Of a stretch of 64,000 bases of DNA, positions 9,207-63,936 are shown piece after piece; the stretch's first letter is position 1; each line of letters opens with the position of its first letter. This stretch comes from Candidatus Nomurabacteria bacterium (lineage in GTDB: Bacteria; Patescibacteriota; Minisyncoccia; Phycocordibacterales; UBA9973): the NCBI GenBank assembly GCA_023267375.1, contig JAHFNJ010000001.1, forward strand, positions 21,878-85,877, given 5' to 3'. The position numbers and the translations under genes were made by a program. The notes under the pieces were generated by a model, which did no database searches, had not been told where the DNA came from, and saw only the letters and a list, made by a program, of their open reading frames with translations.

Positions 9207-9336
9207 GAAAAAGTAAATAAGTAAGCTTGTAAATTGGTAATCTAGAAAATAAAAAAGCCCTTACGGCTTGTTTTGTGTAGCTACTATACCAGCAAAAATG
9301 AATTGGTGCAAGACTGTGGCAGTCGTGTCAATTACC

Positions 9337-12369: not shown

Positions 12370-12917
12370 TTCATTACCTCCTTCTGTTTCTTCTCAAACA
12401 TTGCTTCAAGTGTTTTGTTTGCCTCATCAACGAGTTTCTGGAGTTCATCTTTACTCTTAAATTTCTCATCTTCGGTCAATGCTCCGTCTTTTTCGCGTTG
12501 CTGAATATCGTTCCAGGTTTTTTCACGGTCTTGCTTTACCGCAATGCGTGCCTCTTCAAGACGTTCTTTCAAGATTTTTACCAAGCGTTCGCGAGTTTCA
12601 GTCGTGAGCATTGGGAAAATCACCCGAAGCCCTGCATCATCGGTCGCAACCGAAAGACCCAAGTTCGCAGCAACGATAGCCTTTTCCACATCCTTAACCT
12701 GATTTTTGTCCCATGGGGCAATGCGGAGTGTTTTTGGATCCTCAATAGTGATTGAACCAATATTCTTAAGCGGTTGGAGGGCTCCATAAACAGAGACCAT
12801 CACGCCATCCAAAATGGCCGGCGTTGCACGACCAGTGTGTAATTGCGAGTACTCCTTGGCGAGCCACTCTTCTGACTTTTTTTCTTGTTGTTTAAATAGT
12901 GCGAAGTTATATTGCAT
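12366..12917 (-). CDS. frr: ribosome recycling factor
   Basis: 183 aa. Frr signature throughout (LHTGRATPAILDGVMVSVYG.. and coiled-coil). Confidence 0.9.
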   Translation of the reverse strand: MQYNFALFKQQEKKSEEWLAKEYSQLHTGRATPAILDGVMVSVYGALQPLKNIGSITIEDPKTLRIAPWDKNQVKDVEKAIVAANLGLSVATDDAGLRVIFPMLTTETRERLVKILKERLEEARIAVKQDREKTWNDIQQREKDGALTEDEKFKSKDELQKLVDEANKTLEAMFEKKQKEVMN

Positions 12918-13027
12918 GTGTCTATTATAGCAGAAAAAATAAAAAAGTGATTTGTTGACAAGTGGTTTTTTATATTCTAAGGTATAGCAAATTGTTTTAT
13001 ATTGTCTTACCTTAAAAAAATACCCCT

Positions 13028-13441
13028 ATGAAAAAAGATTCTAAAAATCTAATGACTGTTTTACTTGGTGATTTAAAAAATGGCATTCGTGCACATTTTG
13101 CAGATTCCGCTATTAAGAACAGCGCACTCAAAGAAGAAACCTTTTTACTATCCGCCAATGGTGTCGTACATTATCACCGTAAATGGATTTTTGAAAAATC
13201 AAACGATGGGTGCGATGAGATTAAACAGCATACAATACTTATCTCCAGAACTAAACTGGAAGAAATTATGTTACATTCTGCTATCACCGTATTCAAGCTG
13301 CCAAATACGGAACATCAGAAATGGGAACATGTCGATCCGGTATGGAGTGATCTAAATTTTAATCACAAATCTGATGCGGCTCCCATTTTTACATCAACCC
13401 TGAAGCAGGTAATTAAAAAAGATAGCGTCACCGCTGAATAA
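13028..13441 (+). CDS. hypothetical protein
   Basis: 137 aa with no recognisable motif. Followed by a terminator. Confidence 0.4.
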   Translation: MKKDSKNLMTVLLGDLKNGIRAHFADSAIKNSALKEETFLLSANGVVHYHRKWIFEKSNDGCDEIKQHTILISRTKLEEIMLHSAITVFKLPNTEHQKWEHVDPVWSDLNFNHKSDAAPIFTSTLKQVIKKDSVTAE

Positions 13442-13465
13442 TCTTACTGAATTAATTTTTTAAAA

Positions 13466-13487
13466 AAGCCCCGCATGTGCGGGGCTT
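13466..13487. terminator. bidirectional rho-independent terminator
   Basis: aagccccgcatgtgcggggctt hairpin with an A run 5' and a T run 3', between convergent genes. Confidence 0.6.
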
Positions 13488-14213
13488 TTACTTTTCCGGC
13501 ATCAAAAGTGCCACCGATTCTAAGAGCATTTTAACTGATGCTCCAGGTGTCTGCAGATATTCTCGAGACTTCCCTATTTGCTGAAATGCCATTTTTTCCG
13601 TATCAGTAAGTATGCTCATTTTTCCACCTTCATGGAGTACAAATTCAATACTATTTAAAAGCGAAACAGCCTGCGCACGGAGCGCGCCAAATTCGTCATC
13701 ATTTTCATGTGCTTTGATCAAAGATGCGACATGTTTCAATCGTGCTGGTTTTTTCATTGCTAAAAATTCACTTCCCGCTTTTGTACTTTTATTTTCTTCG
13801 GTGCTTCGGATATGCACGAGTCGTGATGCCAGCGTTTCCAAGAGCGCACCAATACGCGGAACGATTATGAAAAAATGAACATTTTGCGCGGGCTCTTCAA
13901 ATACTTTCAAAAGCGCCTGTTGTGCTTCACTGTTAAAAAAATCAGTTTGGATAATAAAAAATTTCTTACCCGATTGGATAGACGTACCACTTCCGATAGC
14001 TCGCTCCCCTTGCCGCGCTTTCAGCTGGCGACCATTTTCGATGGTAAACGTACTATATTTTTCAATGATGAGGTCAGGGTTACCGTGAATAGCAATATTC
14101 GCATTTTCAAAAAAGATAAGCAGGTTCGGCAAAACAACTTCCGAATTACCCTCAAGCAAATATGCATGGTGGAGAGAATTGATGTCTATAGATTGTGCAA
14201 GCTCTTCGAGCAT
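13488..14213 (-). CDS. DNA polymerase III delta'-like protein (HolB-like, no P-loop)
   Basis: HAYLLEG..DLII..AQQALLKVFEEP..LETLASRLVHI matches the clamp-loader delta' pattern. GxxGxGK is absent. Confidence 0.55.
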   Translation of the reverse strand: MLEELAQSIDINSLHHAYLLEGNSEVVLPNLLIFFENANIAIHGNPDLIIEKYSTFTIENGRQLKARQGERAIGSGTSIQSGKKFFIIQTDFFNSEAQQALLKVFEEPAQNVHFFIIVPRIGALLETLASRLVHIRSTEENKSTKAGSEFLAMKKPARLKHVASLIKAHENDDEFGALRAQAVSLLNSIEFVLHEGGKMSILTDTEKMAFQQIGKSREYLQTPGASVKMLLESVALLMPEK

Positions 14214-14224
14214 TGAGATAAAAA

Positions 14225-15238
14225 TTACCGCTTTGATATGATTGTCTTCTTATACATATCGAGGTGATCAAGTGCAACACCGGTGCCGTTTACCACACAG
14301 TACAGTGCTTCATCGGCAAGACGTGCTTTTACCCCTGTCTTGCGATACACAAGATCCGGGAAATTACGAAGCTGCGAAGTTCCCCCAGTCATAATGATGC
14401 CTTGATCAATAATGTCTGATGCGAGTTCGGGTGGCGTTTCCTGGAGCACCGCTTTGATCGCCTGTACGATTTGCTTCAATTCTTTATCAATCGCGCGAAC
14501 AATTTCATTTGTTGAGACCTGAGCAGAGCGCGGCAGACCCTGAATGAAATCGCGTCCTTTGATTGTCATTGTTAACTCTTCTTCAAGCGGAATGGCTGCA
14601 CCAATTTTTATTTTTACATCTTCAGCAGTTTTATCGCCGATCGCTAAGTTGAATGTTTTTTTGATATAGTCCGCAATCGCAGCATCAATTTTATTTCCCG
14701 CGCATTTTACTGACGTAGATGCAACGATACCTCCCAAGGAAATCACCGCAACGTCAGTCGTACCGCCGCCAATATCGACGATCATGTGTCCGCGTGATTC
14801 TTGAATTGGAATACCCGCACCAATCGCTGCCAAAATCGGCTCTTTCACCACGTAAGCATTTTTTGCACCAGCTTTTATTGCTGCTTCAACCACGGCGCGA
14901 CGTTCAGTCGATGTCACGCCAGCTGGCACAGAAATCATCACATCTGGTTTAAACAAATTGAATGGGCCGAGCGCTTTCGTAATGAAGTAACGAAGCATTG
15001 CTTCAGTGACTCGGTAGTCGGCGATCACGCCATCTTTCATAGGACGATATGCAATAATGCTTTCCGGTGTTTTTCCGATCATTTCTTTCGCTTCTACCCC
15101 GATCGCTAAAATTCGATTGTCTTGCTCTGAAACCGCTACCACCGAAGGCTCATTGAGCACAACGCCTTTTCCAGGAAGGAACACGAGTGTGTTGGCGGTC
15201 CCCAAATCAATACCTAGTTTTTTAGTAAAAAGCGCCAT
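14225..15238 (-). CDS. mreB: rod-shape-determining protein MreB
   Basis: LGIDLGTANTLVF..., DIGGGTTDVAVIS, and full-length actin-like ATPase. Confidence 0.9.
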   Translation of the reverse strand: MALFTKKLGIDLGTANTLVFLPGKGVVLNEPSVVAVSEQDNRILAIGVEAKEMIGKTPESIIAYRPMKDGVIADYRVTEAMLRYFITKALGPFNLFKPDVMISVPAGVTSTERRAVVEAAIKAGAKNAYVVKEPILAAIGAGIPIQESRGHMIVDIGGGTTDVAVISLGGIVASTSVKCAGNKIDAAIADYIKKTFNLAIGDKTAEDVKIKIGAAIPLEEELTMTIKGRDFIQGLPRSAQVSTNEIVRAIDKELKQIVQAIKAVLQETPPELASDIIDQGIIMTGGTSQLRNFPDLVYRKTGVKARLADEALYCVVNGTGVALDHLDMYKKTIISKR

Positions 15239-15335
15239 ATATAGTAGATAGAATATAGCACGATACTTCCGAGAGACAAAAAGTGGATCGTTTGATAATA
15301 CGTAAAATATATTATATAATTCGCAACATCAATTT

Positions 15336-16640
15336 ATGGCAAGTTTAAAGATACAAGGCGGGAAAAAACTAAGCGGCGAAATCATTCCGCAAGGAACAAA
15401 AAACGAAGCGCTCGAAGTCTTGTGCGCAACATTACTCACTGATGAAGAAATCCGGATCGAAAATGTTCCGGATATTTTGGATATACAAAACCTTCTCACG
15501 GTGCTTGAAAAATTGGGAGTAACTATTACAAAAGAAGATGCGCACACCTATACGTTTCGCGCACAGAATATTAACGTTGACTATTTAAATGGTAATGGCG
15601 ACATCGCCGAAGCAGCAACGATCCGTGGCTCACTCATGGTTGCGGGACCGCTTCTTGGCCGTTTTGGAAAAGCATACATGCCGAAGCCGGGCGGAGACAA
15701 AATTGGTCGCCGCAGACTCGATGCTCATATTTTCGGATTTGAAAAATTAGGAGCGACCGTAGCACGCTCAGAAAAAACAAATGCATACCTCATCTCGGCC
15801 CACAAACTCACTGGTGCAGATATTCTTTTTGATTATGCCTCTGTCACTGGAACAGCAAATACTATTATGGCAGCAGTACTCGCAGAAGGTACAACCACAC
15901 TCTACAACGCAGCGTGCGAACCCCACGTCCAACAATTATGCAGAATGCTAAACTCTATGGGCGCGCAGATCTCTGGTATTGGTTCAAACATGCTTGCAAT
16001 TACTGGTGTAGAAAAATTAAAAGGCTGCACGCACCGCATATTGCCCGACATGATTGAAATTGGTAGCTTCATCGGACTTGCCGCAATGACCGGCTCTGCG
16101 CTTACCATAAAAGATGCGGATTACGGACACCTGGGAAACATTCTTCCAACATTTCGCAAACTTGGTATTCAGATACAACAGGAAGGAAAAGATATCATCA
16201 TTCCAACACAAGAACACTACGCTATAGAAAAATTCTTAGATGGATCAATCTACACACTCATGGATGCAGTGTGGCCAGCCTTCCCTGCAGACTTGCTCTC
16301 AGTAGTACTCGTCGTTGCAACACAGGCAAAAGGAAGTATGCTAATCCATCAATCAATGTTTGAGAGCAGACTTTTCTTTGTTGATAAATTGATCGACATG
16401 GGTGCACAGATTATTTTATGTGATCCGCATCGTGCAGTTGTTGTCGGACTCGATCATGAAAGTTCTCTTCGCGGCATTACCATGTCATCTCCAGATATTC
16501 GCGCCGGCGTTGCACTCTTGATCGCCGCACTTTCCGCAAATGGAGAAAGCACTATTCACAATAGCGAACAAATCGATCGCGGCTATGAACGTATCGCTGA
16601 ACGACTTTCACTACTCGGAGCAAAAATTGAACGTTTTTAA
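15336..16640 (+). CDS. murA: UDP-N-acetylglucosamine 1-carboxyvinyltransferase
   Basis: 434 aa. LKIQGGKKLSGEI..KNEALEVLCA and full-length MurA similarity. Confidence 0.9.
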   Translation: MASLKIQGGKKLSGEIIPQGTKNEALEVLCATLLTDEEIRIENVPDILDIQNLLTVLEKLGVTITKEDAHTYTFRAQNINVDYLNGNGDIAEAATIRGSLMVAGPLLGRFGKAYMPKPGGDKIGRRRLDAHIFGFEKLGATVARSEKTNAYLISAHKLTGADILFDYASVTGTANTIMAAVLAEGTTTLYNAACEPHVQQLCRMLNSMGAQISGIGSNMLAITGVEKLKGCTHRILPDMIEIGSFIGLAAMTGSALTIKDADYGHLGNILPTFRKLGIQIQQEGKDIIIPTQEHYAIEKFLDGSIYTLMDAVWPAFPADLLSVVLVVATQAKGSMLIHQSMFESRLFFVDKLIDMGAQIILCDPHRAVVVGLDHESSLRGITMSSPDIRAGVALLIAALSANGESTIHNSEQIDRGYERIAERLSLLGAKIERF

Positions 16641-16657
16641 AAAATTAAATAAAAAGA

Positions 16658-16688
16658 AACCCGCCCTGCGTAAGCAAGACGGGTTTTT
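16658..16688 (+). terminator. rho-independent terminator of murA
   Basis: aaacccg..cgggttt stem followed by a T run. Confidence 0.5.
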
Positions 16689-16709
16689 TGTTTTTGTTTC
16701 CCTTTTTTT

Positions 16710-17120
16710 TCAATTATTTTTTTGTAATACATCCAGCTCTTTCTTAAAAAAGAGGATGTGGCGGCGATTTTCTTCGATTGTCATTAGCATTCCTGCAAAG
16801 AAACGTGAGATAACAATCACAAGAATAAAACCGATTGGAAAAAGAAACGATTCGACAACAGCCAAATCATTTGCTCTTCCAATAAAATAACTGAGGAAAA
16901 TGATAAGAGTAACTCCTGCACCAACAGGGGTAAGCACTTCAAACAATTTCTTGAAGCCAGTTCTTAATTGAGAAACCAGCGAATCAAGAATCACCACGAT
17001 TGGTGAGGGGCCAGCGGTAACTGCTTGGGAGTAATTCCATAATAATTGAGCGACTACAATATTCGCCCGCTTTTTTAATCTTTTCATTTTACTTTTTTGG
17101 GGTTTTTGGGGGTTGAACAC
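16710..17120 (-). CDS. hypothetical membrane protein
   Basis: 136 aa with three or four TM helices and a basic N-terminus. Confidence 0.4.
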   Translation of the reverse strand: MFNPQKPQKSKMKRLKKRANIVVAQLLWNYSQAVTAGPSPIVVILDSLVSQLRTGFKKLFEVLTPVGAGVTLIIFLSYFIGRANDLAVVESFLFPIGFILVIVISRFFAGMLMTIEENRRHILFFKKELDVLQKNN

Positions 17121-49486: not shown

Positions 49487-52345
49487 TTATGCAGCGACAA
49501 TGTTCACCAATTTATTTTTTACGTAAATTATTTTTCGAATCGTCTTGCCTGCTATCCATGATTGTATCATAGGATGATTCTTTGCTATTTCTTCTGCTTC
49601 TTTTTCTGATAGTGAAACAGGGACTGTTGCTTCGGCGCGAACTTTGCTATTTACCTGTATGACGAGCGTAAAGGTATCATCAACAATTTTCTTCGGATCA
49701 TACTTTGGCCACTTTGAAAGATGGATAGATTTCTTCTCTCCCATCTCTCGCCAAAGCTCTTCAGCAACGTGCGGGATAAATGGCGCGACTATCTGCAAAA
49801 ATAGCTTGAAATCTTTTACCGAAAGGCTTTCTGCCTTCTCCATTTCATTTACACAAATCATCATCGATGAAATCGCAGTATTGAAACCCATGATTTCAAT
49901 ATCTTCAGTCACCTTTTTAATTGCCTTATGGAGTAATCGTTCTATCTCTTTACTGCTTGTCTTCGCTTTTGCACTCATTACCTTTTCTCCTAGTCGCCAG
50001 ACTTTTTCAATAAAGCGTCGTGAACCGATCATGCTCTCCGTTGACCACACCACTGCTTGATCAAATGGACCAAGAAACATCTCATAGAGACGAAGTGTAT
50101 CAGCGCCGTAGGTTTTGACGATATCGTCAGGATTTACTACATTACCCCGAGATTTTGACATCTTCTCTCCTCCTTCAGCCAAAATAAGTCCATGCGATGT
50201 ACGCTTCTTGTATGGCTCACTCGTCGGCACTAATTTCAAATCATAGAGGAATTTGTGCCAGAAACGAGAATAGAGCAGGTGAAGTGTGGTGTGTTCCATT
50301 CCCCCGTTATACCAATCAACTGGCGTCCAATATTTCAAATTTTTCTTTGACGCAAACTCTTTTTTATTTTTCGGATCGGTGTAGCGAAGATAGTACCAAG
50401 AACTTCCTGCCCAGTTTGGCATCGTATCAGTTTCGCGTTTTGCTTTACCTTTGCATTTTGGACACTTCGTATTTACCCATGAAGTAATAGCGGAAAGTGG
50501 CGATTCCCCAGTATCAGTCGGCTGGTAACTTTTTACTTTTGGCAATTTGAGTGGCAATTCTTTCTCTGGTACTGGCACCCAGCCACACTTTTCACAATTG
50601 ACGAGCGGAATCGGTTCACCCCAATAACGCTGCCGAGAGAACACCCAATCACGAAGTTTGAATTTCGTCACCATTTTTCCGCCGACAAATTCAGTTATAT
50701 TCTTTTTTACTTCTTGAGAAGAAAGACCATTGAACTGGCCGGAGTTAATCAAAACACCACCTTCAGTGTAGGCACCTATTTTCCCAAGATACTTATTCCA
50801 AGAAAGTTTATGATTGCCATGCACCAAAAAATCTTCCATCTTATTTTTTTCTATCCAAAGCGGCTCATGTTTTTTTAACTCCTCTTCATCAACGTTATTC
50901 TGCGCGCCACTTCCAAGTTCGATCACTATCGTTTGTGCTTTCGCATAACGGTTTTCGCCTTTTTGGTGTTGATAAAATTTTGAATGTACTTCAAACTGTA
51001 AATCATATGCTTTCTTAAAATCAGTAAACCCTGTTTCTTCTGAAACCTCACGCTTCATAGCACTTACTGCATCTTCCCCTGTATCAATACCTCCCATAAC
51101 AAGCGACGTCCAATGATCTACTTGTTTCCATTTAAGTGCCAAATATTTATCCTCACTCCAATGTTTAATGATTGCATAGGCAACATCACGCTCAATTACA
51201 GGTTTACCCGCAACAGGCTTATCAGGATGACCTTCTCCAGATTCAAACATCGGTGCAATAACCTGCTTAATCGGCAATTTGTATTTTGTCGCAAACGCAA
51301 AATCACGCTCATCATGTGCGGGTACCGCCATAACCGCGCCCGTACCGTAATTTACCAATGCATAATCAGCCACCCAGACTGAAACCTTTTCACCATTTGC
51401 TGGGTTGATTGCTTCTACACCTTTCAATTCCACGCCAGTCTTTTCTTTGTCGGCCGCTGTTCGGGTCAATTCATCTTTCTTTTTTGCTAGAGCTATATAT
51501 TTCTCAACCTCGTCCCAATTTTTAACTTTCGACTTTAGACTTTCGACTAATGTATGTTCAGGCGCAAGTATCACGTAGGTTGCACCAAAAATAGTATCTG
51601 CACGTGTTGTAAATACTTTGATTCCCAATTCTGAATCTGTAATTTTAAATTCAATTTCACTGCCTTCTGATTTTCCAATCCAATTTCGCTGTTGTGTTTT
51701 GACTTGCGGCAGATAATCTACCGTATCCAAATCTTTATCGAGACGGTCAGCATATTTTGTGATCGCAAGCATCCATTGTTCTTTCTCACGCTTTTCAGTC
51801 AGCGTACCGCAGCGCTCGCAGCAACCATTGATCACTTCTTCGTTCGCTAAACCAATTTTATCTTTTGGACACCAGTTAATGACGGTCTTGGTTTTGTACG
51901 CCAAACCTTTTTTAAAAAATTGCAGAAATATCCACTGCGTCCATTTATAGTACGCAGGGTCAGTGGTATTTACTTCACGAGACCAATCAAACGAAACTGC
52001 CAATGATTTTATCTGTCGACGAAAGTTATCACTGTTTTTCTTGGTGACTTTCTCCGGCGCAATACCTGTCTTGATCGCATAGTTTTCGGTGGGCAGTCCG
52101 AACGCATCCCAACCAATCGGATAAAGCACATTATAGCCTTCCATGCGACGCTTACGAGAAATAATATCCATACCTATATATGGACGCGGGTGACCGACGT
52201 GAAGGCCATCACCTGATGGATATGGGAACTCAATTAAACCGTAGAATTTTTTACCCTTAAGCTTATTTTGAGCGTTATAAATTTTCTTCTTTTCCCATTC
52301 CTTCTGCCATTTGCCCTCGATTTTCTTGTGATCGTAATTCTTCAT
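49487..52345 (-). CDS. leuS: leucyl-tRNA synthetase carrying an inserted Nudix hydrolase domain
   Basis: FPYPSGDGLHVGH (HIGH), CP1 editing domain (TRADTIFGATYVILAPEH...AVPAHDERDFAFA), KMSKS. Between CP1 and the YTEGGVLINSGQFNGL segment there is an extra ~160 aa containing GGIDTGEDAVSAMKREVSEETGF, a canonical Nudix box. Confidence 0.9.
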   Translation of the reverse strand: MKNYDHKKIEGKWQKEWEKKKIYNAQNKLKGKKFYGLIEFPYPSGDGLHVGHPRPYIGMDIISRKRRMEGYNVLYPIGWDAFGLPTENYAIKTGIAPEKVTKKNSDNFRRQIKSLAVSFDWSREVNTTDPAYYKWTQWIFLQFFKKGLAYKTKTVINWCPKDKIGLANEEVINGCCERCGTLTEKREKEQWMLAITKYADRLDKDLDTVDYLPQVKTQQRNWIGKSEGSEIEFKITDSELGIKVFTTRADTIFGATYVILAPEHTLVESLKSKVKNWDEVEKYIALAKKKDELTRTAADKEKTGVELKGVEAINPANGEKVSVWVADYALVNYGTGAVMAVPAHDERDFAFATKYKLPIKQVIAPMFESGEGHPDKPVAGKPVIERDVAYAIIKHWSEDKYLALKWKQVDHWTSLVMGGIDTGEDAVSAMKREVSEETGFTDFKKAYDLQFEVHSKFYQHQKGENRYAKAQTIVIELGSGAQNNVDEEELKKHEPLWIEKNKMEDFLVHGNHKLSWNKYLGKIGAYTEGGVLINSGQFNGLSSQEVKKNITEFVGGKMVTKFKLRDWVFSRQRYWGEPIPLVNCEKCGWVPVPEKELPLKLPKVKSYQPTDTGESPLSAITSWVNTKCPKCKGKAKRETDTMPNWAGSSWYYLRYTDPKNKKEFASKKNLKYWTPVDWYNGGMEHTTLHLLYSRFWHKFLYDLKLVPTSEPYKKRTSHGLILAEGGEKMSKSRGNVVNPDDIVKTYGADTLRLYEMFLGPFDQAVVWSTESMIGSRRFIEKVWRLGEKVMSAKAKTSSKEIERLLHKAIKKVTEDIEIMGFNTAISSMMICVNEMEKAESLSVKDFKLFLQIVAPFIPHVAEELWREMGEKKSIHLSKWPKYDPKKIVDDTFTLVIQVNSKVRAEATVPVSLSEKEAEEIAKNHPMIQSWIAGKTIRKIIYVKNKLVNIVAA

Positions 52346-53055: not shown

Positions 53056-53538
53056 ATGACTCGCGCAGAAAGAAACCGAAAACGTATAGAGACAGCCTCG
53101 ATAAAGCTTACTCGCTGGATCGGTTCAACACCATCTGTGATCGTCCACACGATCTTTTTTGCGATTATGCTCGCCCTTCCGTTTTGGGGCGTTGGTTTTG
53201 ACAGAATACTACTCGTCCTTACCACAGCCGTCTCGCTTGAAGCGATCTATCTTTCCATATTTATCCAAATGACGGTGAACCGACACAGTAAAGAACTTGA
53301 AGAAGTATCAGAAGATATTGAAGAGATTCAGGAAGATGTGGAAGAGATTCAGGAAGATGTGGATGAAATTCAAGAGGATGTCGACGAAATCCAGGAAGAC
53401 GTGAGTGAAATTCAAGAGGATGTCGAAGACATCGAAGAAGAAACTCAATCAGACGATGATAGAACGATGGAGAAAATTGAAACAACCTTGGCCGATCTCA
53501 TGCGCGAAATAAAAGAGCTCAAAAACTCAAAAAAGTAA
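53056..53538 (+). CDS. DUF1003-like membrane protein with an acidic heptad-repeat tail
   Basis: Two TM helices plus IFIQMTVNRHSKE (DUF1003-like), then (E/D)(E/D)IQEDV repeated five or more times, encoded by 21-bp tandem repeats. Confidence 0.5.
   Translation: MTRAERNRKRIETASIKLTRWIGSTPSVIVHTIFFAIMLALPFWGVGFDRILLVLTTAVSLEAIYLSIFIQMTVNRHSKELEEVSEDIEEIQEDVEEIQEDVDEIQEDVDEIQEDVSEIQEDVEDIEEETQSDDDRTMEKIETTLADLMREIKELKNSKK
53299..53440 (+). repeat. 21-bp tandem repeat array inside the 53056..53538 CDS (about 6 units)
   Basis: gaagagattcaggaagatgtg occurs as two perfect units, followed by degenerate units. Confidence 0.7.
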
Positions 53539-56094: not shown

Positions 56095-56165
56095 GGGAGA
56101 AATATAACAGAAAAACCCTTTCTACTCAATGAGGAGAAAGGGTTTTTCTTATTATTATTTTTTTA

Positions 56166-59100
56166 TTACAACCCCAATGCTTGCAGTATCGCTGCCCAGG
56201 TTACTGGACCAACAACACCATCAACCGGAGCAAGACCTTTTGCAGCTTGGAATGCTTTCACCGCTGCTTCGGTCTGTAATCCGAAGTATGCATTTTCATT
56301 ACCAGGAGAACCGCCACCAGTTGTTGAAACGATGAATCCCAATTTGTTGAGTGATTGCTGAAGGAACATTACATCAGGACCGGTTGATTTGTATTTCAAT
56401 ACTCCAGTGTATGGATGACCGTTTGATGATGCTCCTGCATTACTGTTCCCTGATGGAGGAGTAACGCCAGCACACGACTGACCGGTTGATGGAGAGAAGA
56501 GGAAGCCTGCAGCACAGTCTGTTGGAGGGGTTGCTGGGGTTGCAGGAGGAGTTACTTTTGGACGTGATGATCCTCCACCGCCTCCACCACTAATGCTGGT
56601 GCCAGACGATGACTTATTAAATGTTGCAGTGCAGGTCTTGTCATCATCCATTGTAATTGTAATCGTCGCATTTGTACTTGAAGAACAGCCAGACCAATTC
56701 TTGAACGTAGATTTTGCTGCCGCTACTGCATAGAGTGTTACTTCTGTACCATCATCATAATCAGGTCCTTCTGGGTCAACATGGATAGTGCCTGTGCCAT
56801 TTCCTGAAGTATTGGTAGTTAAAGTAAATTGTTCAGGACCAGTCGAAACAAATGTTGCATGAATAGAATGGTTACCAGTAACATCTGTAAATTCATACGT
56901 TGTAACTGCGCCAACAGAAACATCATCTACAGTTACATCATCAATTGCGTATCCTTCGCTTGGAGCTACTGTAAAGGATTGGTCATCTCCTTCTGCAACG
57001 GACACCACTCCACTTGGAGTGACTGTTCCATTACCACCAGTTGTAGCGGTAATGTGATGCGTTTGAACGAGTGTAGGATAATCACCAACATTTGTTTTCC
57101 ATATGGTGTCAAAATTCCAGCTACCATTATCAAATGGATGATTAGCGGTGACGTCGCCGAAGAAATAGTTTGCACCAAGGGCAACAGGCGCGTTCACTCC
57201 TTCACATTCACCTGCAGTATCGTTTGCAACAGGAGGATCGATCCAGTCAGTAAATATCGAACAATGATCCTGTCCACTTCGATCTATATCGTAATAGTTA
57301 TTTGAGAGAGTTGCGCCATCATCATTTTCACCGAGAAAGCCGGCAGTAAAGATTCCAAATCCGGAAACTTCTTCAACTGCACCAGCAGAGAAACTGTTTG
57401 AGATAGTACCGCCTTCAGTTTCACCCACAAGTCCGCCGACTTCAGATTCAGTTTCTTGAACATCTGTTTCTAAATCTTCATCCCACATAAGCAACCCTGT
57501 AAGATCTCCCGTTACATCACCAGAAGCATATGAGTGGTCAATAATTGTTTCGTCAGCAAACCCTACGAGGCCACCAACCGAACGTGTTCCTGAAACATCA
57601 CCACTCGCATAAGAGTTATCGATTGTAAGAACACCTTCTGAATCTCCAATAAGACCTCCGGTATCCTGACCTCCAGTAACATCACCAGTCGCATATGAAG
57701 TGGTAATAGTTGTATCATCATCTGCTCCACCTATAAGTCCACCGAATCCATAGTAATCATTATCAATTTGAGATGTTATATTACCAGTTGCATGAGAATC
57801 AGTAATATTCACAGTTACTAAATCACTCGTCCACCCAACTAAGCCACCCAAATACTCATAGATACTTGAAACATCATTTGTTGCATAGCTTTGATCAATG
57901 TTTACTGTTGTTGGATTTTCACCCCACCACCAACCTGACTCTACTGAACCGAGTAGTCCACCAGCGTATCCTTCATCAATACTACCAAGTTCATCTGACG
58001 CGCCAATATCTCCCACAGCATTTGAGTTGGTAATGTTTATAACTTGGTGACCTCCACTATTTATCGAATAACCTATAAGCCCACCGATAGAGGAACTTCC
58101 AATTTCAATCGGAACGTCACTATAACTATCAGTTACGGTGAGCGTATTTGTTTCACCTGTATCGCCACCTGTATAAAATTCTCCTATCAATCCTCCAATG
58201 TATTCACCATCTTCTGTTGTACTTGAGATGGTTCCTGTAGCGCTACTTCCATCAATCACTGCTGTTGCTTGATCATTAAGTTCAATTTCACCAATAAGAC
58301 CTCCAGCGTAACCTTCTGGTGCGGTAACCACGTTCCCACTTTCATTAGTCCATGAACTATCAGTTATAGTAAGCTCATCTCCATTTTCAACATTAGCATA
58401 ACCAATTAGTCCGCCAACTTCCTCATTACCTGTAACATCTTCAGTTGAAGTACTATTTTCTATAGTAATGTCAGCATCGTATATTTCACCTAAAAATCCA
58501 CCTATACCATAAGATTCACTTGTATTTGTAATAACATTTGCAGAATTTGTACTATCAGTAATCGTTATTGCTCCACTATTATTATCATCCCCATCATACT
58601 CTCCGATAAATCCACCCACTCCCTCTCCATTACCTGTTGTAACTGCTCCCTGATTTGTTGCATCATCAAAATTAATAGTAAAAGGTATATCCTCTGAGTA
58701 TGCATGTCCGATGAAGCCACCTATATAATAATTCCAAGTAGTACCCTCATTATCTGTGGCAGTTACACTTGCATTATTGTAACTCTCTCCTTCTATACTT
58801 ATAGAACTATTACGAGAATCTACTTGCCCAATAAATCCTCCAAGACTGTATATATCGTTACCACTTGAAGTACTACCAATACTTCCATCAACATAACTAT
58901 TATCTACAGTAATCACGCTGTTATAACGGATTATAGAATAACCTATAAGTCCACCGATATACCCACTATTTGTAGCAGAAATATTTACGTTAGCATCTGA
59001 ATCTGAAATAGTTACATTACTTCCAAAGCGCTGCTCCAATCTTCCAAACATTCCACCTAAATTATTCTGACCATCATCTACTGAAAGCTGTCCTTCGGTG

Positions 59101-60566
59101 CCATAATTTACGGAAGTATTTGAAACCGTGAGTGTTGCTCCGTGGTATGCATCTCCATATCCAACAAGACCACCGACATCATAATTACCGTGCACAGCTC
59201 CATCAACTCCACCAACAATAGTATCTGAAATAGTTAAAGAAGAATCGTAATACATCTCGTATCCTCCTATAAGACCACCGACATCACTATCCCCAGTTAA
59301 ATGAAGATTACTTGTACTGTTTGTTATTGAAAGCAAACTATCACGTGCATCCCAGTATCCAACAAATCCTCCTATATCACTCCACGCACTATCAATTGTT
59401 CCATCGGCACTTGTATCATCTATGTAAACACTACCTGCGGAAGATTCCCAATAATCATCATTGTTAACATAACCAATAATTCCACCAACATCATATATAT
59501 TATCTCCATTGCCAATATCTACAGTGGCATGAGAACCGCCATTAATAACAAGTGAACCACCACGATACTGTTCTACTTCTCCAACAAGTCCACCAATATC
59601 ATATCCTGGAATTATTCCACCTTCATCTATAAGTACATTAGTATCTACGTTTGTAAGCGTGAGAACAGAACCACCAGATTCAATATCTGCATAACCGACA
59701 GCTCCACCCAATTCTCCTTGACCATTTATAGTTGCCTCTCCATCCCCCCAAGAAGTGTCACTAAGAGTAGCTTTTGCCGAGGAATCAAGATATACATAAC
59801 CAATAAGTCCCCCAACATCATTACTACCTGACGCAACATCACCAGTTACCACTACATCATCAACAGTAAGACTCGCATTATTGGACATATTTACATATCC
59901 AATAAGTCCACCTGTTGCCCAACCATCATTCGTGACATTCACCGATACAGATCCTCCTGTTATTGAAACAGCACTACTTGCAGCATCCCCATATACTTCT
60001 CCGACAAGTCCACCGATATAGTAGTTTACTCCATGAACAGTTCCGCTTGCTGACACATTTTCAACCGTTGAATCATATTGAAGGTACCCAGCAAGTGCTC
60101 CGATATTATAAGCTCCACTCATATTAACGTCTGTAAGTGTAAAATCATGAATATATGCACCATTATTTGTATCACTGAAAAGTCCTACACCATCCTCACC
60201 TGGACGATTTATATATAAGCCAGTAATTGTATTACTGTTTCCGTCCAAGGTTCCAGAGAAATTTTCAAGTGGAGAAAAACCATAAAATCCACCTTCTCCA
60301 TTATCATTCCAGGTGGTTGTACCCGAACAATTAATAACTCCTTCGCCACCATTTAATTGATAGTAAACTCCTGGAGCTACATTGTTACCAATTGCTTGCA
60401 ATTCTTCACACGTAGTAATGAGATAAGGATTATCGGCAGTACCATCGGGATCAGCAAACGATGTTTTTGGGTAGACAGCAACCAAGGTAACTAGCACTAT
60501 CGCAAAAATTCCCGTTGGAACAAATGAAAACTTCCTGAATTTTTTAAAAAAGTTTGTGGTAATCAT
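56166..60566 (-). CDS. giant cell-surface protein: signal anchor, ~35 GLUG-type repeats, InlB-B-like repeat, Cys motif, and a C-terminal peptidoglycan-binding domain
   Basis: 1466 aa. Reiterated ..(I/V)GG(L/F)(I/V)G(Y/E).. units of ~25 to 30 aa (GLUG motif). C-terminus ...PSEGYAIDDVTVDDVSVG..YEFTDVTGNHSIHATF, G6SS linker, DCAAGFLFSPSTGQSC, then LxxGxxGxxVxxLQ...DGVVGPVT (PG_binding_1-like). Confidence 0.7.
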   Translation of the reverse strand: MITTNFFKKFRKFSFVPTGIFAIVLVTLVAVYPKTSFADPDGTADNPYLITTCEELQAIGNNVAPGVYYQLNGGEGVINCSGTTTWNDNGEGGFYGFSPLENFSGTLDGNSNTITGLYINRPGEDGVGLFSDTNNGAYIHDFTLTDVNMSGAYNIGALAGYLQYDSTVENVSASGTVHGVNYYIGGLVGEVYGDAASSAVSITGGSVSVNVTNDGWATGGLIGYVNMSNNASLTVDDVVVTGDVASGSNDVGGLIGYVYLDSSAKATLSDTSWGDGEATINGQGELGGAVGYADIESGGSVLTLTNVDTNVLIDEGGIIPGYDIGGLVGEVEQYRGGSLVINGGSHATVDIGNGDNIYDVGGIIGYVNNDDYWESSAGSVYIDDTSADGTIDSAWSDIGGFVGYWDARDSLLSITNSTSNLHLTGDSDVGGLIGGYEMYYDSSLTISDTIVGGVDGAVHGNYDVGGLVGYGDAYHGATLTVSNTSVNYGTEGQLSVDDGQNNLGGMFGRLEQRFGSNVTISDSDANVNISATNSGYIGGLIGYSIIRYNSVITVDNSYVDGSIGSTSSGNDIYSLGGFIGQVDSRNSSISIEGESYNNASVTATDNEGTTWNYYIGGFIGHAYSEDIPFTINFDDATNQGAVTTGNGEGVGGFIGEYDGDDNNSGAITITDSTNSANVITNTSESYGIGGFLGEIYDADITIENSTSTEDVTGNEEVGGLIGYANVENGDELTITDSSWTNESGNVVTAPEGYAGGLIGEIELNDQATAVIDGSSATGTISSTTEDGEYIGGLIGEFYTGGDTGETNTLTVTDSYSDVPIEIGSSSIGGLIGYSINSGGHQVINITNSNAVGDIGASDELGSIDEGYAGGLLGSVESGWWWGENPTTVNIDQSYATNDVSSIYEYLGGLVGWTSDLVTVNITDSHATGNITSQIDNDYYGFGGLIGGADDDTTITTSYATGDVTGGQDTGGLIGDSEGVLTIDNSYASGDVSGTRSVGGLVGFADETIIDHSYASGDVTGDLTGLLMWDEDLETDVQETESEVGGLVGETEGGTISNSFSAGAVEEVSGFGIFTAGFLGENDDGATLSNNYYDIDRSGQDHCSIFTDWIDPPVANDTAGECEGVNAPVALGANYFFGDVTANHPFDNGSWNFDTIWKTNVGDYPTLVQTHHITATTGGNGTVTPSGVVSVAEGDDQSFTVAPSEGYAIDDVTVDDVSVGAVTTYEFTDVTGNHSIHATFVSTGPEQFTLTTNTSGNGTGTIHVDPEGPDYDDGTEVTLYAVAAAKSTFKNWSGCSSSTNATITITMDDDKTCTATFNKSSSGTSISGGGGGGSSRPKVTPPATPATPPTDCAAGFLFSPSTGQSCAGVTPPSGNSNAGASSNGHPYTGVLKYKSTGPDVMFLQQSLNKLGFIVSTTGGGSPGNENAYFGLQTEAAVKAFQAAKGLAPVDGVVGPVTWAAILQALGL

Positions 60567-60571
60567 AGTAA

Positions 60572-61045
60572 TTATTGTTGCGCCGGAGCAATAATATCTG
60601 CTAATGCTGTCTCATAGTTTTCAAGTTGATCAATGGTTGTAGTAGATTGAATATTTTCCTTGAGTGCCTGGAGTTGCGAAATTAAACCACTACTTGATTG
60701 AATTGTTTTTTTTGTACCATTTTGATGAATCGATAGTGCTTGAATGCTTGCAATTTTTGTATTACGAGCATCTTCTGATTGAAGATGTCTGATAACACGC
60801 TCCACATTCAAAATCTCGCGCGCTTTTTCAGCAACAAACCGAGATGTTGACTGTGCTAAACGCGCATCTTGTGGGTGTCGTGCGCTAAATGAAGTAGCCT
60901 GGCGAGATTTCGCGGCAGTCTCATTCCTCGTTGCATGGTCCGATGCTTTTGATGCCTGCGCCGTATGTATCGAAAAAATGCCAATACCAACAAGTAGTAC
61001 GGCAGAGATAATTAAAAAAGTATATTTTTTCATAGCAAAAAACAT
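60572..61045 (-). CDS. hypothetical secreted protein
   Basis: 157 aa. Signal peptide (LIISAVLLVGIGIFSIHTAQA), a Ser/Thr/Gln-rich middle region and a helical C-terminal region. Confidence 0.4.
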   Translation of the reverse strand: MFFAMKKYTFLIISAVLLVGIGIFSIHTAQASKASDHATRNETAAKSRQATSFSARHPQDARLAQSTSRFVAEKAREILNVERVIRHLQSEDARNTKIASIQALSIHQNGTKKTIQSSSGLISQLQALKENIQSTTTIDQLENYETALADIIAPAQQ

Positions 61046-61215
61046 TTAACACAACACTTTTGAGCGCTGCGTAATTAATTCATAATAAATAAAACTTCAA
61101 CTCTTATATTTTAAGTGTTCTCGAACTATTTGTCATTATTTTATGGGGATAACTCGCACACAAAGAGCACGCAATCTCTGCGTATGCAACAAAGTAAGTA
61201 GATCAATGATCTACA

Positions 61216-63936
61216 CTATTTCATTCTACTTGCCGTTACTGGACCAACGACACCATCAGCAGGAAGTCCGTTCATTCGTTGAAAGAGTTGCACCGCTTGC
61301 ATTGTTTTAGTACCAAACGAATTTGTTTCAAATCCTTTTGAGCCAGTACCAGAGAGAGAAACGGGGTATCCATGCGTATTCAAATATTTTTGCAACAGGA
61401 GTACGTCGTTCCCGATCATGCCAAATTTGAGTGTGCGAACATAGACATAGGGTGCACCACCACTCGTTTGATTTCCTAAAAACAGTGACTGCAGTGGCGC
61501 GCTACCGCCTGTGCATGATTGCCCAGTTGACGGACTAAAGGCAAAACCAAGTGAACAATCAGCGGGCTTGGCGAGAGCCGGACATGCCCTTCCAGTCGAA
61601 GGACTAAAAGCAAAACCAAGTGAACAATCAGCGGGAACTACCGGTTTTGGAGCACCGCCTCCCCCTCCACCACCACCACTAGAAGTATTTTTTTTAAACG
61701 TTACGCTGATTGTATGGTCTTCGTTCACTCCCGAAAATGTATATTTTTTTACTGACCCAACTGATGAACCATCAACAAGCACTTTATTTACTGAGTATCC
61801 CCGTGCCGGAGTGATTGTAAAGAGTTGACTGCCACCAAATGAAACAGTAACGGCTCCTGTTGGAGTGATTGTTCCATTTGCGTCTGCTGAAGCAGTAATA
61901 TGCGGGGAAACAATGCCGCTACTAAAAGTAGCGACAGCGGCATTGAGAGTCACCAGTGCCGCGTCAACAGTTGCTTGCGCGACAGCATTGGTTATTGATG
62001 AGGCGGTATCAATTGCAGTTTGGAGTGTCGCTTTCGAACCAACAGCATATTGTCCGGTTGCCGTACCTTCTACAGCTCCGTCGTATAATGTTTGCGCAGA
62101 AGAAATTGCAGCAGTGAGCGCAGTTAAATCGGATGGTGGCACTACTGAAGCATAAAATGTTGTTTCAGCGCTAACTAATGCAGCCAGTGCAGAATTTATT
62201 GTTGATTGAGATGAGCTTATTGTGTTCGCCACTGCTTGAGCAGCATCTATCGCAGATTGAAATAGTGCCTTCGAACCCACCACATGATCTCCTGGGGTTG
62301 TGCCTTCGATTGCATCATCGTGGAGTCCTTGTGCGGTCACAATCTCAACATTTAAAGCATCGAAATCAGCCGGAACAATACCTGACAGAAACACTCCAGT
62401 TGCAGCATCGAGCGCACTGACTCCATCGGCAATGAAACTCGAGGAGGAATCACTGTCATCTAAAATTGCAGTTGCGGCGTCAATTGCCGTTTGGTAAGTA
62501 GCTTTTGAGCCGACACTGTACTGTCCTGGACTTGTTCCCTCAACGGCGCTGTCATGGACACCTTGGGCGTAGAGAATATCAGCATCAAACAAGGCTTTCT
62601 GAGCATTTATTCTTTTTTCAGAAACAGTCTTGCCGGAATATCCCGCCTTAGTATCTCCAGTATTTAAAATGATGCTTCTTACTTGTGTCGCAGTGAGATT
62701 ATTTTTATATCCCCAAATAAGCCCTGCTAAACCTGCGACGTACGGAGTCGCCATTGAAGTACCTGAAAGGTATGCGTACGCATTTTGCGTAATCGTACTT
62801 GCGATATTTTCTCCCGGAGCGGCGACATCCACAGAGGTAGCCCCATAATTTGAGAATGAGGTAAGCGCATCATTTTGATCAGTGGCCGCAACTGAAATAA
62901 TACTTGGCAAATCATAATCTGAAGGATAAAAATGAGAAGTATCGTTATTGTTAGTATCATTCCCTGCCGCAGCCACAAAAATTCCTCCGGCGTTTTGGAA
63001 GCGCTCAATTGCATCATATTCGGCTTGAGAAAATCCTCCACCCCCAAAGGAAGCATTGATAACTTTTGCGCCATTTTGAATCGCAAAATCAATTGCCTTC
63101 ACTTCGGACGATACTGTGAGCGCAAAACGAAGTGCCATTATTTTTGCATGCGGCGCAATACCCAAGACTCCGATGCCGTTATTTTTTTCTGCAGCAATAA
63201 TTCCAGCAACGTGAGTACCATGATAATCCGAGTTGGTCCCTGGTAATGGCGTTTTGTCATTACCACTATAATCATACCCATAGTTACATCCACCAAGTAC
63301 CGCACCAGTATTACTCTTGCAGTTGGTGCCATCCCACATATTCGTAGCCAAATCAGGGTGTGTATATGAGACACCGATATCAATCACCGCAACAACAACA
63401 GCTGCATTTGTTCCTTCATTTATTGCCCATGCTTCTGGAGCATCAACATCTGCGTCGGCGGTTCCAGTGATATTCGCCCAATCACCATTTATCGTCTGAC
63501 CAGTGTTATCGAGTCCCCAAAGTAATGCTCGATGGGTATCATCCGAACTAATCGTTGTAATATCTCGCACGTAGTTTGGTTCAGCATATTCGATATTTGG
63601 ATCATTTTGCAAATCAGCAATAGTCTCCTCTACTGTTTTTACTGAATCCGTTTTGAGTAGTGAAATATTTTCTTTTTGAAAATGCTCTTCAATAGAAAGT
63701 GCTTGCTTTTTACTGAGCGCATCAGCAAGAGCTCTCCCTGAGGCAGTCTTTAAATTCACTTTCTCTTCTTTGTATTTCACCAGAACTTCATCCGGAACAT
63801 AGTGATGCACCTCTTGGCTTTTCATTTGCGGGACTGGAATAATAACGTCGTCCGCAGAAGCAAGTGGTGCCACAACAAGCATACTAAACAGAAGTATGCT
63901 TGTTACAAACAGAGTTTTGCTTTTTATGGTAAGCAT
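61216..63936 (-). CDS. secreted S8 subtilisin-like serine protease with FIVAR-like repeats and a C-terminal peptidoglycan-binding domain
   Basis: Signal peptide. D (VIDIGV), H (HGTHVAGIIAA), S (GTSMATPYVAGLAGL) catalytic triad. Four ~55-aa repeats (..EGT.PGQY.VGSKAT.QTAIDAA..). InlB-B-like repeat, G8 linker, 2x DCSLGFAFSPSTG(R/Q)xC, and a PG-binding domain. Confidence 0.8.
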   Translation of the reverse strand: MLTIKSKTLFVTSILLFSMLVVAPLASADDVIIPVPQMKSQEVHHYVPDEVLVKYKEEKVNLKTASGRALADALSKKQALSIEEHFQKENISLLKTDSVKTVEETIADLQNDPNIEYAEPNYVRDITTISSDDTHRALLWGLDNTGQTINGDWANITGTADADVDAPEAWAINEGTNAAVVVAVIDIGVSYTHPDLATNMWDGTNCKSNTGAVLGGCNYGYDYSGNDKTPLPGTNSDYHGTHVAGIIAAEKNNGIGVLGIAPHAKIMALRFALTVSSEVKAIDFAIQNGAKVINASFGGGGFSQAEYDAIERFQNAGGIFVAAAGNDTNNNDTSHFYPSDYDLPSIISVAATDQNDALTSFSNYGATSVDVAAPGENIASTITQNAYAYLSGTSMATPYVAGLAGLIWGYKNNLTATQVRSIILNTGDTKAGYSGKTVSEKRINAQKALFDADILYAQGVHDSAVEGTSPGQYSVGSKATYQTAIDAATAILDDSDSSSSFIADGVSALDAATGVFLSGIVPADFDALNVEIVTAQGLHDDAIEGTTPGDHVVGSKALFQSAIDAAQAVANTISSSQSTINSALAALVSAETTFYASVVPPSDLTALTAAISSAQTLYDGAVEGTATGQYAVGSKATLQTAIDTASSITNAVAQATVDAALVTLNAAVATFSSGIVSPHITASADANGTITPTGAVTVSFGGSQLFTITPARGYSVNKVLVDGSSVGSVKKYTFSGVNEDHTISVTFKKNTSSGGGGGGGGAPKPVVPADCSLGFAFSPSTGRACPALAKPADCSLGFAFSPSTGQSCTGGSAPLQSLFLGNQTSGGAPYVYVRTLKFGMIGNDVLLLQKYLNTHGYPVSLSGTGSKGFETNSFGTKTMQAVQLFQRMNGLPADGVVGPVTASRMK
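61521..61634 (-). repeat. ~57-bp tandem duplication inside the S8 protease CDS, encoding the duplicated DCSLGFAFSPSTGxxC motif
   Basis: actaaaggcaaaaccaagtgaacaatcagcggg and actaaaagcaaaaccaagtgaacaatcagcggg are nearly identical cores, 57 bp apart. Confidence 0.6.

Follow-up and report, generated by a model that had tools for sequence, protein, structure and literature searches.

Three adjacent genes near the end of the window (the whole 64,000-nucleotide (nt) stretch of a Candidatus Nomurabacteria genome that was analysed) encode an S8 protease of 906 amino acids (aa), a secreted protein of 157 aa and a GLUG-repeat protein of 1466 aa, called below the protease, the small protein and the giant. 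They probably form a conserved surface-protein cassette: all three products would be exported through Sec, the large two would be tethered to the cell's own wall, and the three would serve one surface pathway. The large proteins end in a common tail of a poly-Gly linker, one or two cysteine (Cys) loops and a PG_binding_1 domain. Judged by its sequence distribution, this tail is a general-purpose, predicted wall-tethering module of Patescibacteria, modular and recombining, and not a device that pairs the proteins of one locus.

Patescibacteria account for much of bacterial diversity and live mostly attached to other cells, and their surface biology is almost uncharacterised. With the tail as a sequence handle, the proteins resident on the cell surface can be listed from any patescibacterial genome, that of Minisyncoccus archaeiphilus included, and the cassette is a concrete candidate set for host contact or surface remodelling. 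Each of the domain families is known. What appears to be undescribed is the loop, with 13 residues between its cysteines (Cx13C), as a phylum-restricted companion of PG_binding_1, together with the orphan small protein and the three-gene order; in the literature we found no description of the loop motif or of the cassette. Should the cassette prove ordinary, the first reading of the locus is still corrected, in that the tail is a generic anchor.

Conservation of the three-gene order

The list of open reading frames (ORFs) confirms the positions, lengths and common strand of the three genes (Table 1). All three products begin with signal peptides, as the preliminary description of this DNA had it: each N-terminus, read directly from the sequence and not by a predictor program, has a basic n-region, a hydrophobic core and an AxA-type site. 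The cleavage sites, marked by a slash, read SFA/DPDG in the giant, AQA/SKAS in the small protein and ASA/DDV in the protease. Close homologues come from organisms named Candidatus Nomurabacteria, Paceibacterota or Patescibacteria group. An identical giant is found with ychF on a contig (L001) of a metagenome in the European Nucleotide Archive.

The gene order protease, small protein, giant is kept in seven of seven loci of the subfamily (the window, L002, L003, L004, L005, the contig of P0212, and L029), which bears out the suggestion that the genes are co-located in related genomes. Across these loci identities are 59-67% for the proteases, 28-50% for the giants and about 19-38% for the small proteins, and the genes flanking the cassette differ from locus to locus. 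Some variation occurs within the cassette. L003 contains a scaffold gap and one extra small gene. L005 has one protease followed by a tandem duplication of the pair (small, giant, small, giant). On the P0212 contig the protease is a 2146-aa S8 with NHL and Big_5 domains, followed by a 148-aa small protein, a 1344-aa giant and a second GLUG giant. In L029 a gene fragment ending in an S8-type tail lies upstream of a 139-aa small protein and a 1127-aa giant. In L004 (GCA_026395955.1, a Candidatus Nomurabacteria metagenome-assembled genome, MAG) an in-frame stop splits the small gene (12691-13148) into ORFs of 69 and 77 aa. The split could reflect pseudogene formation, an error in sequencing or recoding of the stop; the S8 of this locus is without the Cys loop.

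Outside the subfamily the arrangement was not found. Twenty-seven metagenome loci encoding distant relatives of the giant's N-cap, of which 14 extend 4 kb or more upstream, hold no S8 or small-family gene, and neither gene was seen near two distant giants with GLUG repeats and PG_binding_1 (P0210 and P0229). An S8 more remote from that of the window (L006) likewise stands outside any such cassette. The genomic linkage of S8 to giant is 7/7 in subfamily loci versus 0/14 in control GLUG loci.

The small-protein gene always lies directly upstream of the giant. A single-sequence phmmer search of 1.84 billion representatives recovered only four clusters of this family (145-161 aa, never fused), and the protein has no match in Pfam, NCBIfam or PDB. 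The spacer between the small and giant genes is 5 nt. That between the protease and small genes is 170 nt and contains two hairpins (61168-61214) with the best promoter-like site of the region downstream of them. The terminator-like hairpin after the giant was read from the sequence and is not listed by the consensus scan, since its loop is longer than 8 nt. These consensus matches suggest two transcription units, one of the S8 alone and one of small plus giant. The tight unit, as far as gene arrangement indicates, is small plus giant and not protease plus giant, because of the 5-nt spacer and the tandem co-duplication in L005. Since the small and giant genes would form one transcription and translation unit, the small protein is most likely an accessory factor specific to the giant.

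A quite improbable alternative has the secreted small protein inhibit or regulate the neighbouring subtilase (SSI-like, or in the manner of PopD/PopC), guarding the giant until a signal arrives. Its gene does lie between those of protease and giant in 7/7 loci, and the protein is secreted, small and fast-evolving; against this, the gene duplicates with the giant and not with the protease (L005), stands 5 nt from the giant versus 170 nt and hairpins from the S8, and encodes a protein without similarity to inhibitor families or solved structures.

Two other arrangements were considered and rejected. Two-partner secretion (TPS) does not apply, the giant being without the TPS domain PF05860 and its neighbour being a 157-aa orphan, not an Omp85 protein. 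A polymorphic toxin/immunity pair does not fit a giant that ends in PG_binding_1 and a small gene that lies upstream and encodes a signal peptide.

The shared tail and its distribution

The preliminary description had the giant and the protease ending in the same module, beyond a generic peptidoglycan-binding domain, and this is upheld. Both end in poly-Gly, one or two Cys loops and PG_binding_1, preceded by Flg_new_2 in the giant and by a Flg_new_2-like domain in the protease, with 44% identity over 174 aa (pairwise E = 4e-27). Within the 64 kb these are the only PG-binding tails and contain the only poly-Gly runs. An InlB-B-like repeat had been assigned to both; that of the giant scores above the cutoff of Flg_new_2 (PF18998), while the pre-linker domain of the protease falls just short of it (22.5 bits, cutoff 23.6), covering model positions 3-72 of 73 and being 45% identical to the giant's copy (pairwise E = 3e-11).

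Translated in all six frames, the window contains the motif C..GF.FSPSTG..C at exactly three sites, one in the giant and a tandem pair in the protease, as described before. The spacing had been given as Cys-x14-Cys and is corrected to Cx13C. The two protease loops share 44 of 47 nt in the core, so that their tandem duplication is recent; direct comparison delimits a duplication of 69 nt, and Tandem Repeats Finder detected nothing in the region.

The tails of the window's protease and giant do not form a matched pair. In comparison with orthologues, the S8 and giant tails of the window are 47% identical, whereas S8 tails are 54-65% identical and the tail of the L003 giant is 66% identical to that of the window giant. 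Since each is closer to the tails of its own orthologues than to the other, they read as old paralogues that are not specifically matched. Recent gene conversion between them is rejected on the same figures.

Tails elsewhere have a different history. The tandem giants P0127 and P0128 (L005, 12972-17360 and 18015-22418) are 44.5% identical in the body and 94% over their final 140 aa, where two Cys loops and PG_binding_1 lie; the difference suggests concerted evolution (gene conversion) of the anchoring tail. In L003 an unrelated 602-aa protein encoded upstream of the S8 (8191-9999) has a tail 65% identical to that of the L004 giant (13150-16773). These two cases indicate that tails are shuffled and homogenised as modules between genes. 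The gene for a 589-aa homologue of the 602-aa protein is the immediate neighbour of the S8 in L002; in the window the corresponding place would fall past the last position, 64000. Sortase anchoring through LPXTG was rejected for the window proteins, both of which end in a soluble PG_binding_1 domain (...ILQALGL, ...VTASRMK), with no LPXTG family above the NCBIfam threshold.

There is no curated family for the tail, which is defined here as a strict loop within about 20-40 aa of PG_binding_1. The strict loop pattern, C-x2-G-[FY]-x-F-S-P-x-T-G-x2-C (~39 bits), was back-translated and scanned over 185,579 species genomes. It yielded 21 loci, with ~2 chance matches expected, and 21/21 are in Patescibacteria: Paceibacterota, Nomurabacteria, Minisyncoccia, Parcubacteria, MAGs labelled Saccharibacteria, and the cultured M. 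archaeiphilus. The loop is present in one or two copies in 5/5 of the closest giants and in none of ~115 GLUG proteins from other phyla. For S8 homologues a relaxed pattern was used, C-x4-x-[FYLN]-[STND]-x2-[TS]-G-x2-C. PG_binding_1 is present in 48 of the 120 best S8 homologues, and one or two copies of the relaxed loop occur in 22/48 of these versus 0/72 of the homologues without the domain (Fisher p = 4e-11), always 83-109 aa before the C-terminus. Conservation of the Cys motif in homologues, an early claim, holds for the closest giants and for part of the proteases with PG_binding_1. When the protease tail was searched by itself through a word index, just four poly-Gly and PG_binding_1 tails came up, none with the motif, a result made uninformative by the k-mer prefilter.

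PG_binding_1 is adjacent to the loop in 9/10 carriers scanned. The passengers are diverse: S8, SASA esterase, Big_12, fn3, FG-GAP, GEVED, short GLUG and acidic repeat proteins, and S-layer-like giants. Three layouts are seen, namely passenger, poly-Gly, loop(s), PG_binding_1; signal peptide, PG_binding_1, loop(s), passenger; and two loops, PG_binding_1, passenger. Of the earlier view that the locus is lineage-specific, the part concerning the loop motif stands, as it is found only in Patescibacteria; the tail is not particular to the locus, being phylum-wide and on many passengers.

The carrier in M. archaeiphilus (NZ_AP038758.1, L008, 3926-7480, plus strand) is a protein of 1185 aa. Its signal peptide is followed by PG_binding_1, a pair of Cys loops (CSSGAAFDPTTGQPC and CLPGYAFSPTTGQSC) and then a large S-layer-like region rich in beta structure, and the protein offers a tractable system in which to test the module. 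PG_binding_1 itself falls into two subtypes in an alignment of 23 tails, a long form with an inserted VS.SG.GS.G.ET loop and a short form that is without the insertion and has its own conserved Cys pair (C...LK.GS.G..VKC.Q). Both co-occur with the Cx13C loop (P0010-P0012, P0021, P0029, P0035, P0127, P0128).

The loop is most likely a disulfide-stapled beta-hairpin repeat that assists PG_binding_1, either as a spacer or by contacting the wall. Across the 23 aligned tails the two Cys and the Gly never vary, and F and S are conserved to at least 90%. The AlphaFold2 (AF2) model, made of the giant's tail, has one beta-bridge in the loop, consistent with a hairpin, and a disordered linker between loop and PG_binding_1. 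The cysteines of the window proteins (eight in the giant, six in the protease) are all in local pairs, as fits extracytoplasmic disulfides, and the loop cysteines would form one. Loop copy number is two in the window protease, one in its orthologues, and 0-3 among orthologues and paralogues. No PDB structure aligns to the loop. With Pfam at E <= 10, the loop region matched only PsV_CP_C (22 bits, cutoff 27), which is below threshold, was judged a chance match and was rejected as the identity of the loop.

The loop had first been described as a possible disulfide knot or recognition tag. A disulfide is supported by the invariant cysteines and the hairpin-like bridge; an obligatory sorting tag is not, because the loop is optional in orthologues and labile in copy number. 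In its fuller form the tag would be read by a dedicated sorting, cross-linking or modifying enzyme. Such a role might be expected of an element so short, strongly conserved, phylum-restricted and fixed in its distance from the anchor domain, and its core (FSPSTG), rich in Ser, Thr and Pro, could be open to modification. We consider it very unlikely: copies number 0, 1, 2 or 3, they precede or follow PG_binding_1 and can be N- or C-terminal, tandem degenerate copies resemble a small structural repeat, and no conserved candidate enzyme was seen beside carriers. The invariant Cys, Cys and Gly and the aromatic positions are as expected of a stapled hairpin.

The PG_binding_1 domain of the giant is modelled with a predicted local distance difference test (pLDDT) score of 78-91 and helices at 58-69, 91-104 and 115-125 of the tail, and matches the N-domain of SleB (6TCI) in Foldseek with a template modelling (TM) score of 0.90 and a root-mean-square deviation of 1.5 A. 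In SleB, CtpB (4C2E), the Streptomyces albus Zn DD-peptidase (1LBU) and phiKZ gp144 (3BKH) this three-helix domain likewise places an enzyme on murein, and CtpB is a precedent for a protease with PG_binding_1. Unlike the window proteins, these are without a poly-Gly linker and Cx13C loop, and their PG_binding_1 is usually N-terminal.

Both large proteins are probably anchored on the cell's own wall. The window encodes MurA, MurC, MurD, MurE, Alr and MurJ, plus MreB, and therefore the cell has its own murein wall; the genome is that of a Gram-positive-type Patescibacterium of the Paceibacteria/Nomurabacteria type making its own murein. The archaeal host of M. archaeiphilus is not known to have murein. 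That archaeon is the sole host of the species (PMC12281837). Binding to the self-wall is supported by the murein genes together with the occurrence of the module in M. archaeiphilus, with its obligate archaeal host.

The tail could instead direct freely secreted effectors, in the manner of endolysins, onto the murein of another bacterium, host or prey, where the protease and beta-helix would act. Most Patescibacteria are episymbionts (PMC12281837), phage lysins and lytic transglycosylases (phiKZ gp144, AP3 endolysin, SleB) are among the nearest PG_binding_1 structures, and signal-peptide cleavage would leave nothing else to retain the proteins. We hold this to be unlikely in an organism that makes its own murein, given that the same module is present in M. 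archaeiphilus and is carried by S-layer-like giants and structural passengers typical of resident surface proteins, and that poly-Gly linkers suit a wall-spanning tether.

The giant, the protease and their possible relation

Seven stretches of the giant match Glug (PF07581, 115 bits). Its repeat anatomy is ~28 GLUG rungs of ~35 aa, with 26 GG[LFIM]xG cores spaced 28-46 aa apart. AF2 models the body as a capped, continuous, all-beta solenoid with ~3 strands per repeat (pLDDT 84.4, predicted TM score 0.80). Net charge of the body is about -168, with Lys at 0.2% and Arg at 0.8%. The giant is thus confidently predicted to be a very acidic beta-helix rod, whose length at 4.8 A per rung would be roughly 14 nm. 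The acidity could reflect cation binding, surface charge repulsion or resistance to trypsin-like proteases.

Foldseek matches to the body are all beta-helices at the top, led by the GLUG domains of IgA1 proteases and 3N6Z and followed by Fap2, pertactin, Ag43, PfbA, tailspikes and PL6 lyases; none reaches E <= 1e-3 and none is specific. The best matches in both sequence and fold (PF07581; PF05342 region) are the streptococcal and Gemella IgA1 proteases/Zmp (6XJA, 6XJB, 7JGJ, 7UVK, 7UVL) and BACOVA_03286 (3N6Z). The GLUG domains of the IgA1 proteases have 200-400 residues, are attached to an M26 metalloprotease and are anchored by LPXTG, whereas the helix of the giant has ~1080 residues, no catalytic domain and a PG_binding_1 anchor. 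GLUG giants occur across Bacteria and Archaea with various anchors (type IX secretion system tails, SLH, PGF-CTERM, TPS domains, flagellin termini), and the lineage-specific part here is the anchor only. Eleven GLUG proteins of ~2100-2490 aa with flagellin termini (PF00669, PF00700; P0177-P0179, P0184, P0219, P0226, P0228, P0232, P0237, P0242, P0244) are giant flagellins in which the GLUG beta-helix is the variable central domain.

The protease is, as predicted from its sequence, an intact pro-subtilase with a complete active site. Peptidase_S8 (PF00082) scores 186.2 bits (cutoff 21.8), and the catalytic order Asp-His-Ser with the oxyanion Asn is intact: D186 (VAVIDIGV), H239 (HGTHVAG), N326 (AAGN) and S394 (GTSMATP). 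A propeptide, which the preliminary description had left to be checked, is present as a Fervidolysin_NPro-like domain (Table 1). FIVAR (PF07554) scores 24.6 bits on the whole protein, below its cutoff of 29.2, and 38 bits when aa 433-678 are scanned alone. The nearest solved structures are deseasin MCP-01 (3VV3, E = 1e-69) and then thermitase. Deseasin, lactococcal PrtP and Bacillus WprA are likewise multidomain pre-pro S8 proteases kept at the envelope. In contrast to the window protease, PrtP is LPXTG- or membrane-anchored and requires the maturase PrtM, deseasin has a collagen-binding PPC/PKD tail, and none of the three stands in a conserved cassette with a beta-helix giant.

These parts can be joined in one course of events. 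The three proteins would be exported through Sec and their signal peptides removed, which would leave both large proteins without a membrane anchor. Removal of the propeptide would activate the subtilase, a predicted endopeptidase of the deseasin/thermitase kind. Poly-Gly, one or two 15-residue Cys loops and PG_binding_1 would hold both large proteins non-covalently on the cell's own murein. The acidic beta-helix could then project as a ~14-nm rod for host contact or as a surface coat, with the mature small protein (~125 aa) as its accessory factor in folding, in assembly or as a partner. The adjacent, co-tethered subtilase, in the same surface pathway, may process or release the giant or the small protein, or may clear a host surface protein, in this last case at the contact site made by the beta-helix.

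The common predicted anchor of protease and giant is as in surface-maturation pairs of a protease and its substrate. In Clostridioides difficile, Cwp84 and its substrate SlpA are both wall-bound through CWB2 repeats and belong to one cell-wall-protein cluster. They are the best precedent for a co-anchored protease that matures a surface protein: as in the window, a secreted protease and a major surface protein have a common non-covalent wall module and one locus. Cwp84 is a cysteine protease that acts on an S-layer precursor, and CWB2 attaches to a secondary wall polymer, whereas the window has an S8 protease, PG_binding_1 with a Cys loop, a beta-helix giant and an extra small protein, and the pairing of its protease and giant is putative. 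In Bordetella the surface-tethered, subtilisin-like protease SphB1 matures the beta-helical adhesin FhaB/FHA, which resembles the window in that a surface-tethered S8 is functionally paired with a long right-handed beta-helix protein. The Bordetella system is that of a diderm, with TPS through FhaC, a lipoprotein autotransporter as protease and genes that are not adjacent; the giant is without a TPS domain, and its organism is of the Gram-positive type.

Protease and giant may, on the other hand, be independent neighbours, a general nutritional or host-degrading exoprotease beside an unrelated surface protein, brought together by clustering and vertical inheritance in a small clade and bearing the standard anchor of the phylum. 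We regard this as doubtful, though it has several points in its favour. The tail is generic and carried by many unrelated passengers. S8 proteases with PG_binding_1 are common without the cassette (48/120 of the best homologues have the domain; L006 is without the cassette). The S8 apparently has terminator-like hairpins and the small gene a promoter-like site of its own, the window tails are only 47% identical, and the nearest solved relatives of the S8 are degradative subtilases of broad specificity. Against independence, the synteny survives deep divergence, with giants down to 28% identity and small proteins at about 25-35%, and is kept even with the 2146-aa NHL/Big_5 S8; the flanking genes vary among cassette loci; and an S8 lies upstream in 0/14 of the control GLUG loci.

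Several observations weigh against the favoured reading, a cassette whose products serve one surface pathway. A single assembly (GCA_040384425.1) supplies three of the seven cassette loci, so that fewer than seven genomes were sampled independently, even though the proteins of these three loci share only 41-67% identity. The existence of S8 and PG_binding_1 proteases outside the cassette, such as that of L006, means that the role of the protease may be general, and the S8 is apparently transcribed separately, as read from consensus matches only. That the S8 matures or sheds the giant is plausible, the argument for it being conserved synteny only, and an adhesin role of the giant is suggested by analogy of fold only. 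As to the anchor, the loop has a moderate pLDDT of only 65-69 and is not docked on the PG domain in the AF2 model, and it is dispensable, being absent from P0008 (an S8 orthologue of 64% identity) and from the L029 giant.

A bolder version goes beyond the favoured reading. In it, the Cx13C loop and PG_binding_1 would be an undescribed, Patescibacteria-specific display system, with the loop as a second wall-recognition or covalent element, and the cassette would serve protease-controlled adhesin deployment, with the small protein chaperoning or capping the beta-helix and the subtilase trimming or releasing it at host attachment or detachment. We give this version little credence.

Feature coordinates and other genes of the window

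Table 1. Features of the cassette region, in positions of the window; cleavage sites are marked by a slash
Feature	Position	Strand	Evidence
Giant GLUG-repeat surface protein, 1466 aa	56166..60566	-	ORF and Pfam
Giant signal peptide, aa 1-38, ...TSFA/DPDG	60453..60566	-	read from sequence
Predicted right-handed beta-helix body, aa ~45-1125	57192..60434	-	AF2, Foldseek, repeat analysis
Two Flg_new_2 (InlB B-repeat-like) domains of giant, aa ~1172-1319	56610..57053	-	PF18998, 56.3 bits, 2 stretches
Poly-Gly (G6) linker of giant	56571..56588	-	sequence
Giant Cys loop, CAAGFLFSPSTGQSC	56472..56516	-	motif in six-frame translation
PG_binding_1 of giant, aa 1395-1460	56187..56384	-	PF01471, 59.1 bits, cutoff 23
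Intrinsic-terminator-like hairpin after giant, AAAAACCCTTTCT...AGAAAGGGTTTTT	56111..56148	-	read from sequence
Small secreted protein, 157 aa, signal peptide aa 1-31, AQA/SKAS	60572..61045	-	ORF; orphan family
Best promoter-like site of region, ATGACA-17-TAAAAT, in S8-small spacer	61108..61136	-	consensus scan
Predicted pre-pro subtilase, wall-tethered S8 protease, 906 aa	61216..63936	-	ORF; Pfam Peptidase_S8, 186 bits
Protease signal peptide, aa 1-28, ...PLASA/DD	63853..63936	-	read from sequence
Fervidolysin-type N-terminal propeptide, aa 37-121	63574..63828	-	PF22148, 47.7 bits, cutoff 21
S8 catalytic domain, aa 179-429, D186/H239/N326/S394	62650..63402	-	Pfam and sequence motifs
Three FIVAR-like helical repeats of ~85 aa each, aa 433-678	61903..62640	-	PF07554
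Flg_new_2 (divergent InlB B-repeat)-like beta domain of protease, aa 680-750	61687..61899	-	PF18998
Poly-Gly (G8) linker of protease	61654..61677	-	sequence
Protease Cys loop 1, CSLGFAFSPSTGRAC	61582..61626	-	motif in six-frame translation
Protease Cys loop 2, CSLGFAFSPSTGQSC	61513..61557	-	motif in six-frame translation
PG_binding_1 of protease, aa 842-905	61222..61413	-	PF01471, 53.9 bits, cutoff 23

Two other genes of the window encode proteins of note. The leucyl-tRNA synthetase (49487-52345, minus strand, 952 aa) has an inserted NUDIX domain at aa 408-503 (PF00293, 30.2 bits, cutoff 21.1) with a perfect Nudix box, GGIDTGEDAVSAMKREVSEETGF. Immediately before the insert is a CP1 editing domain, whose match to the 185-position model is confined to positions 1-145. 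A class-I aminoacyl-tRNA synthetase harbouring a Nudix hydrolase is unusual. Further along, at 53056-53538 on the plus strand, is the gene for a DUF1003-like membrane protein of 160 aa with six tandem acidic repeats of the EEIQEDV type.

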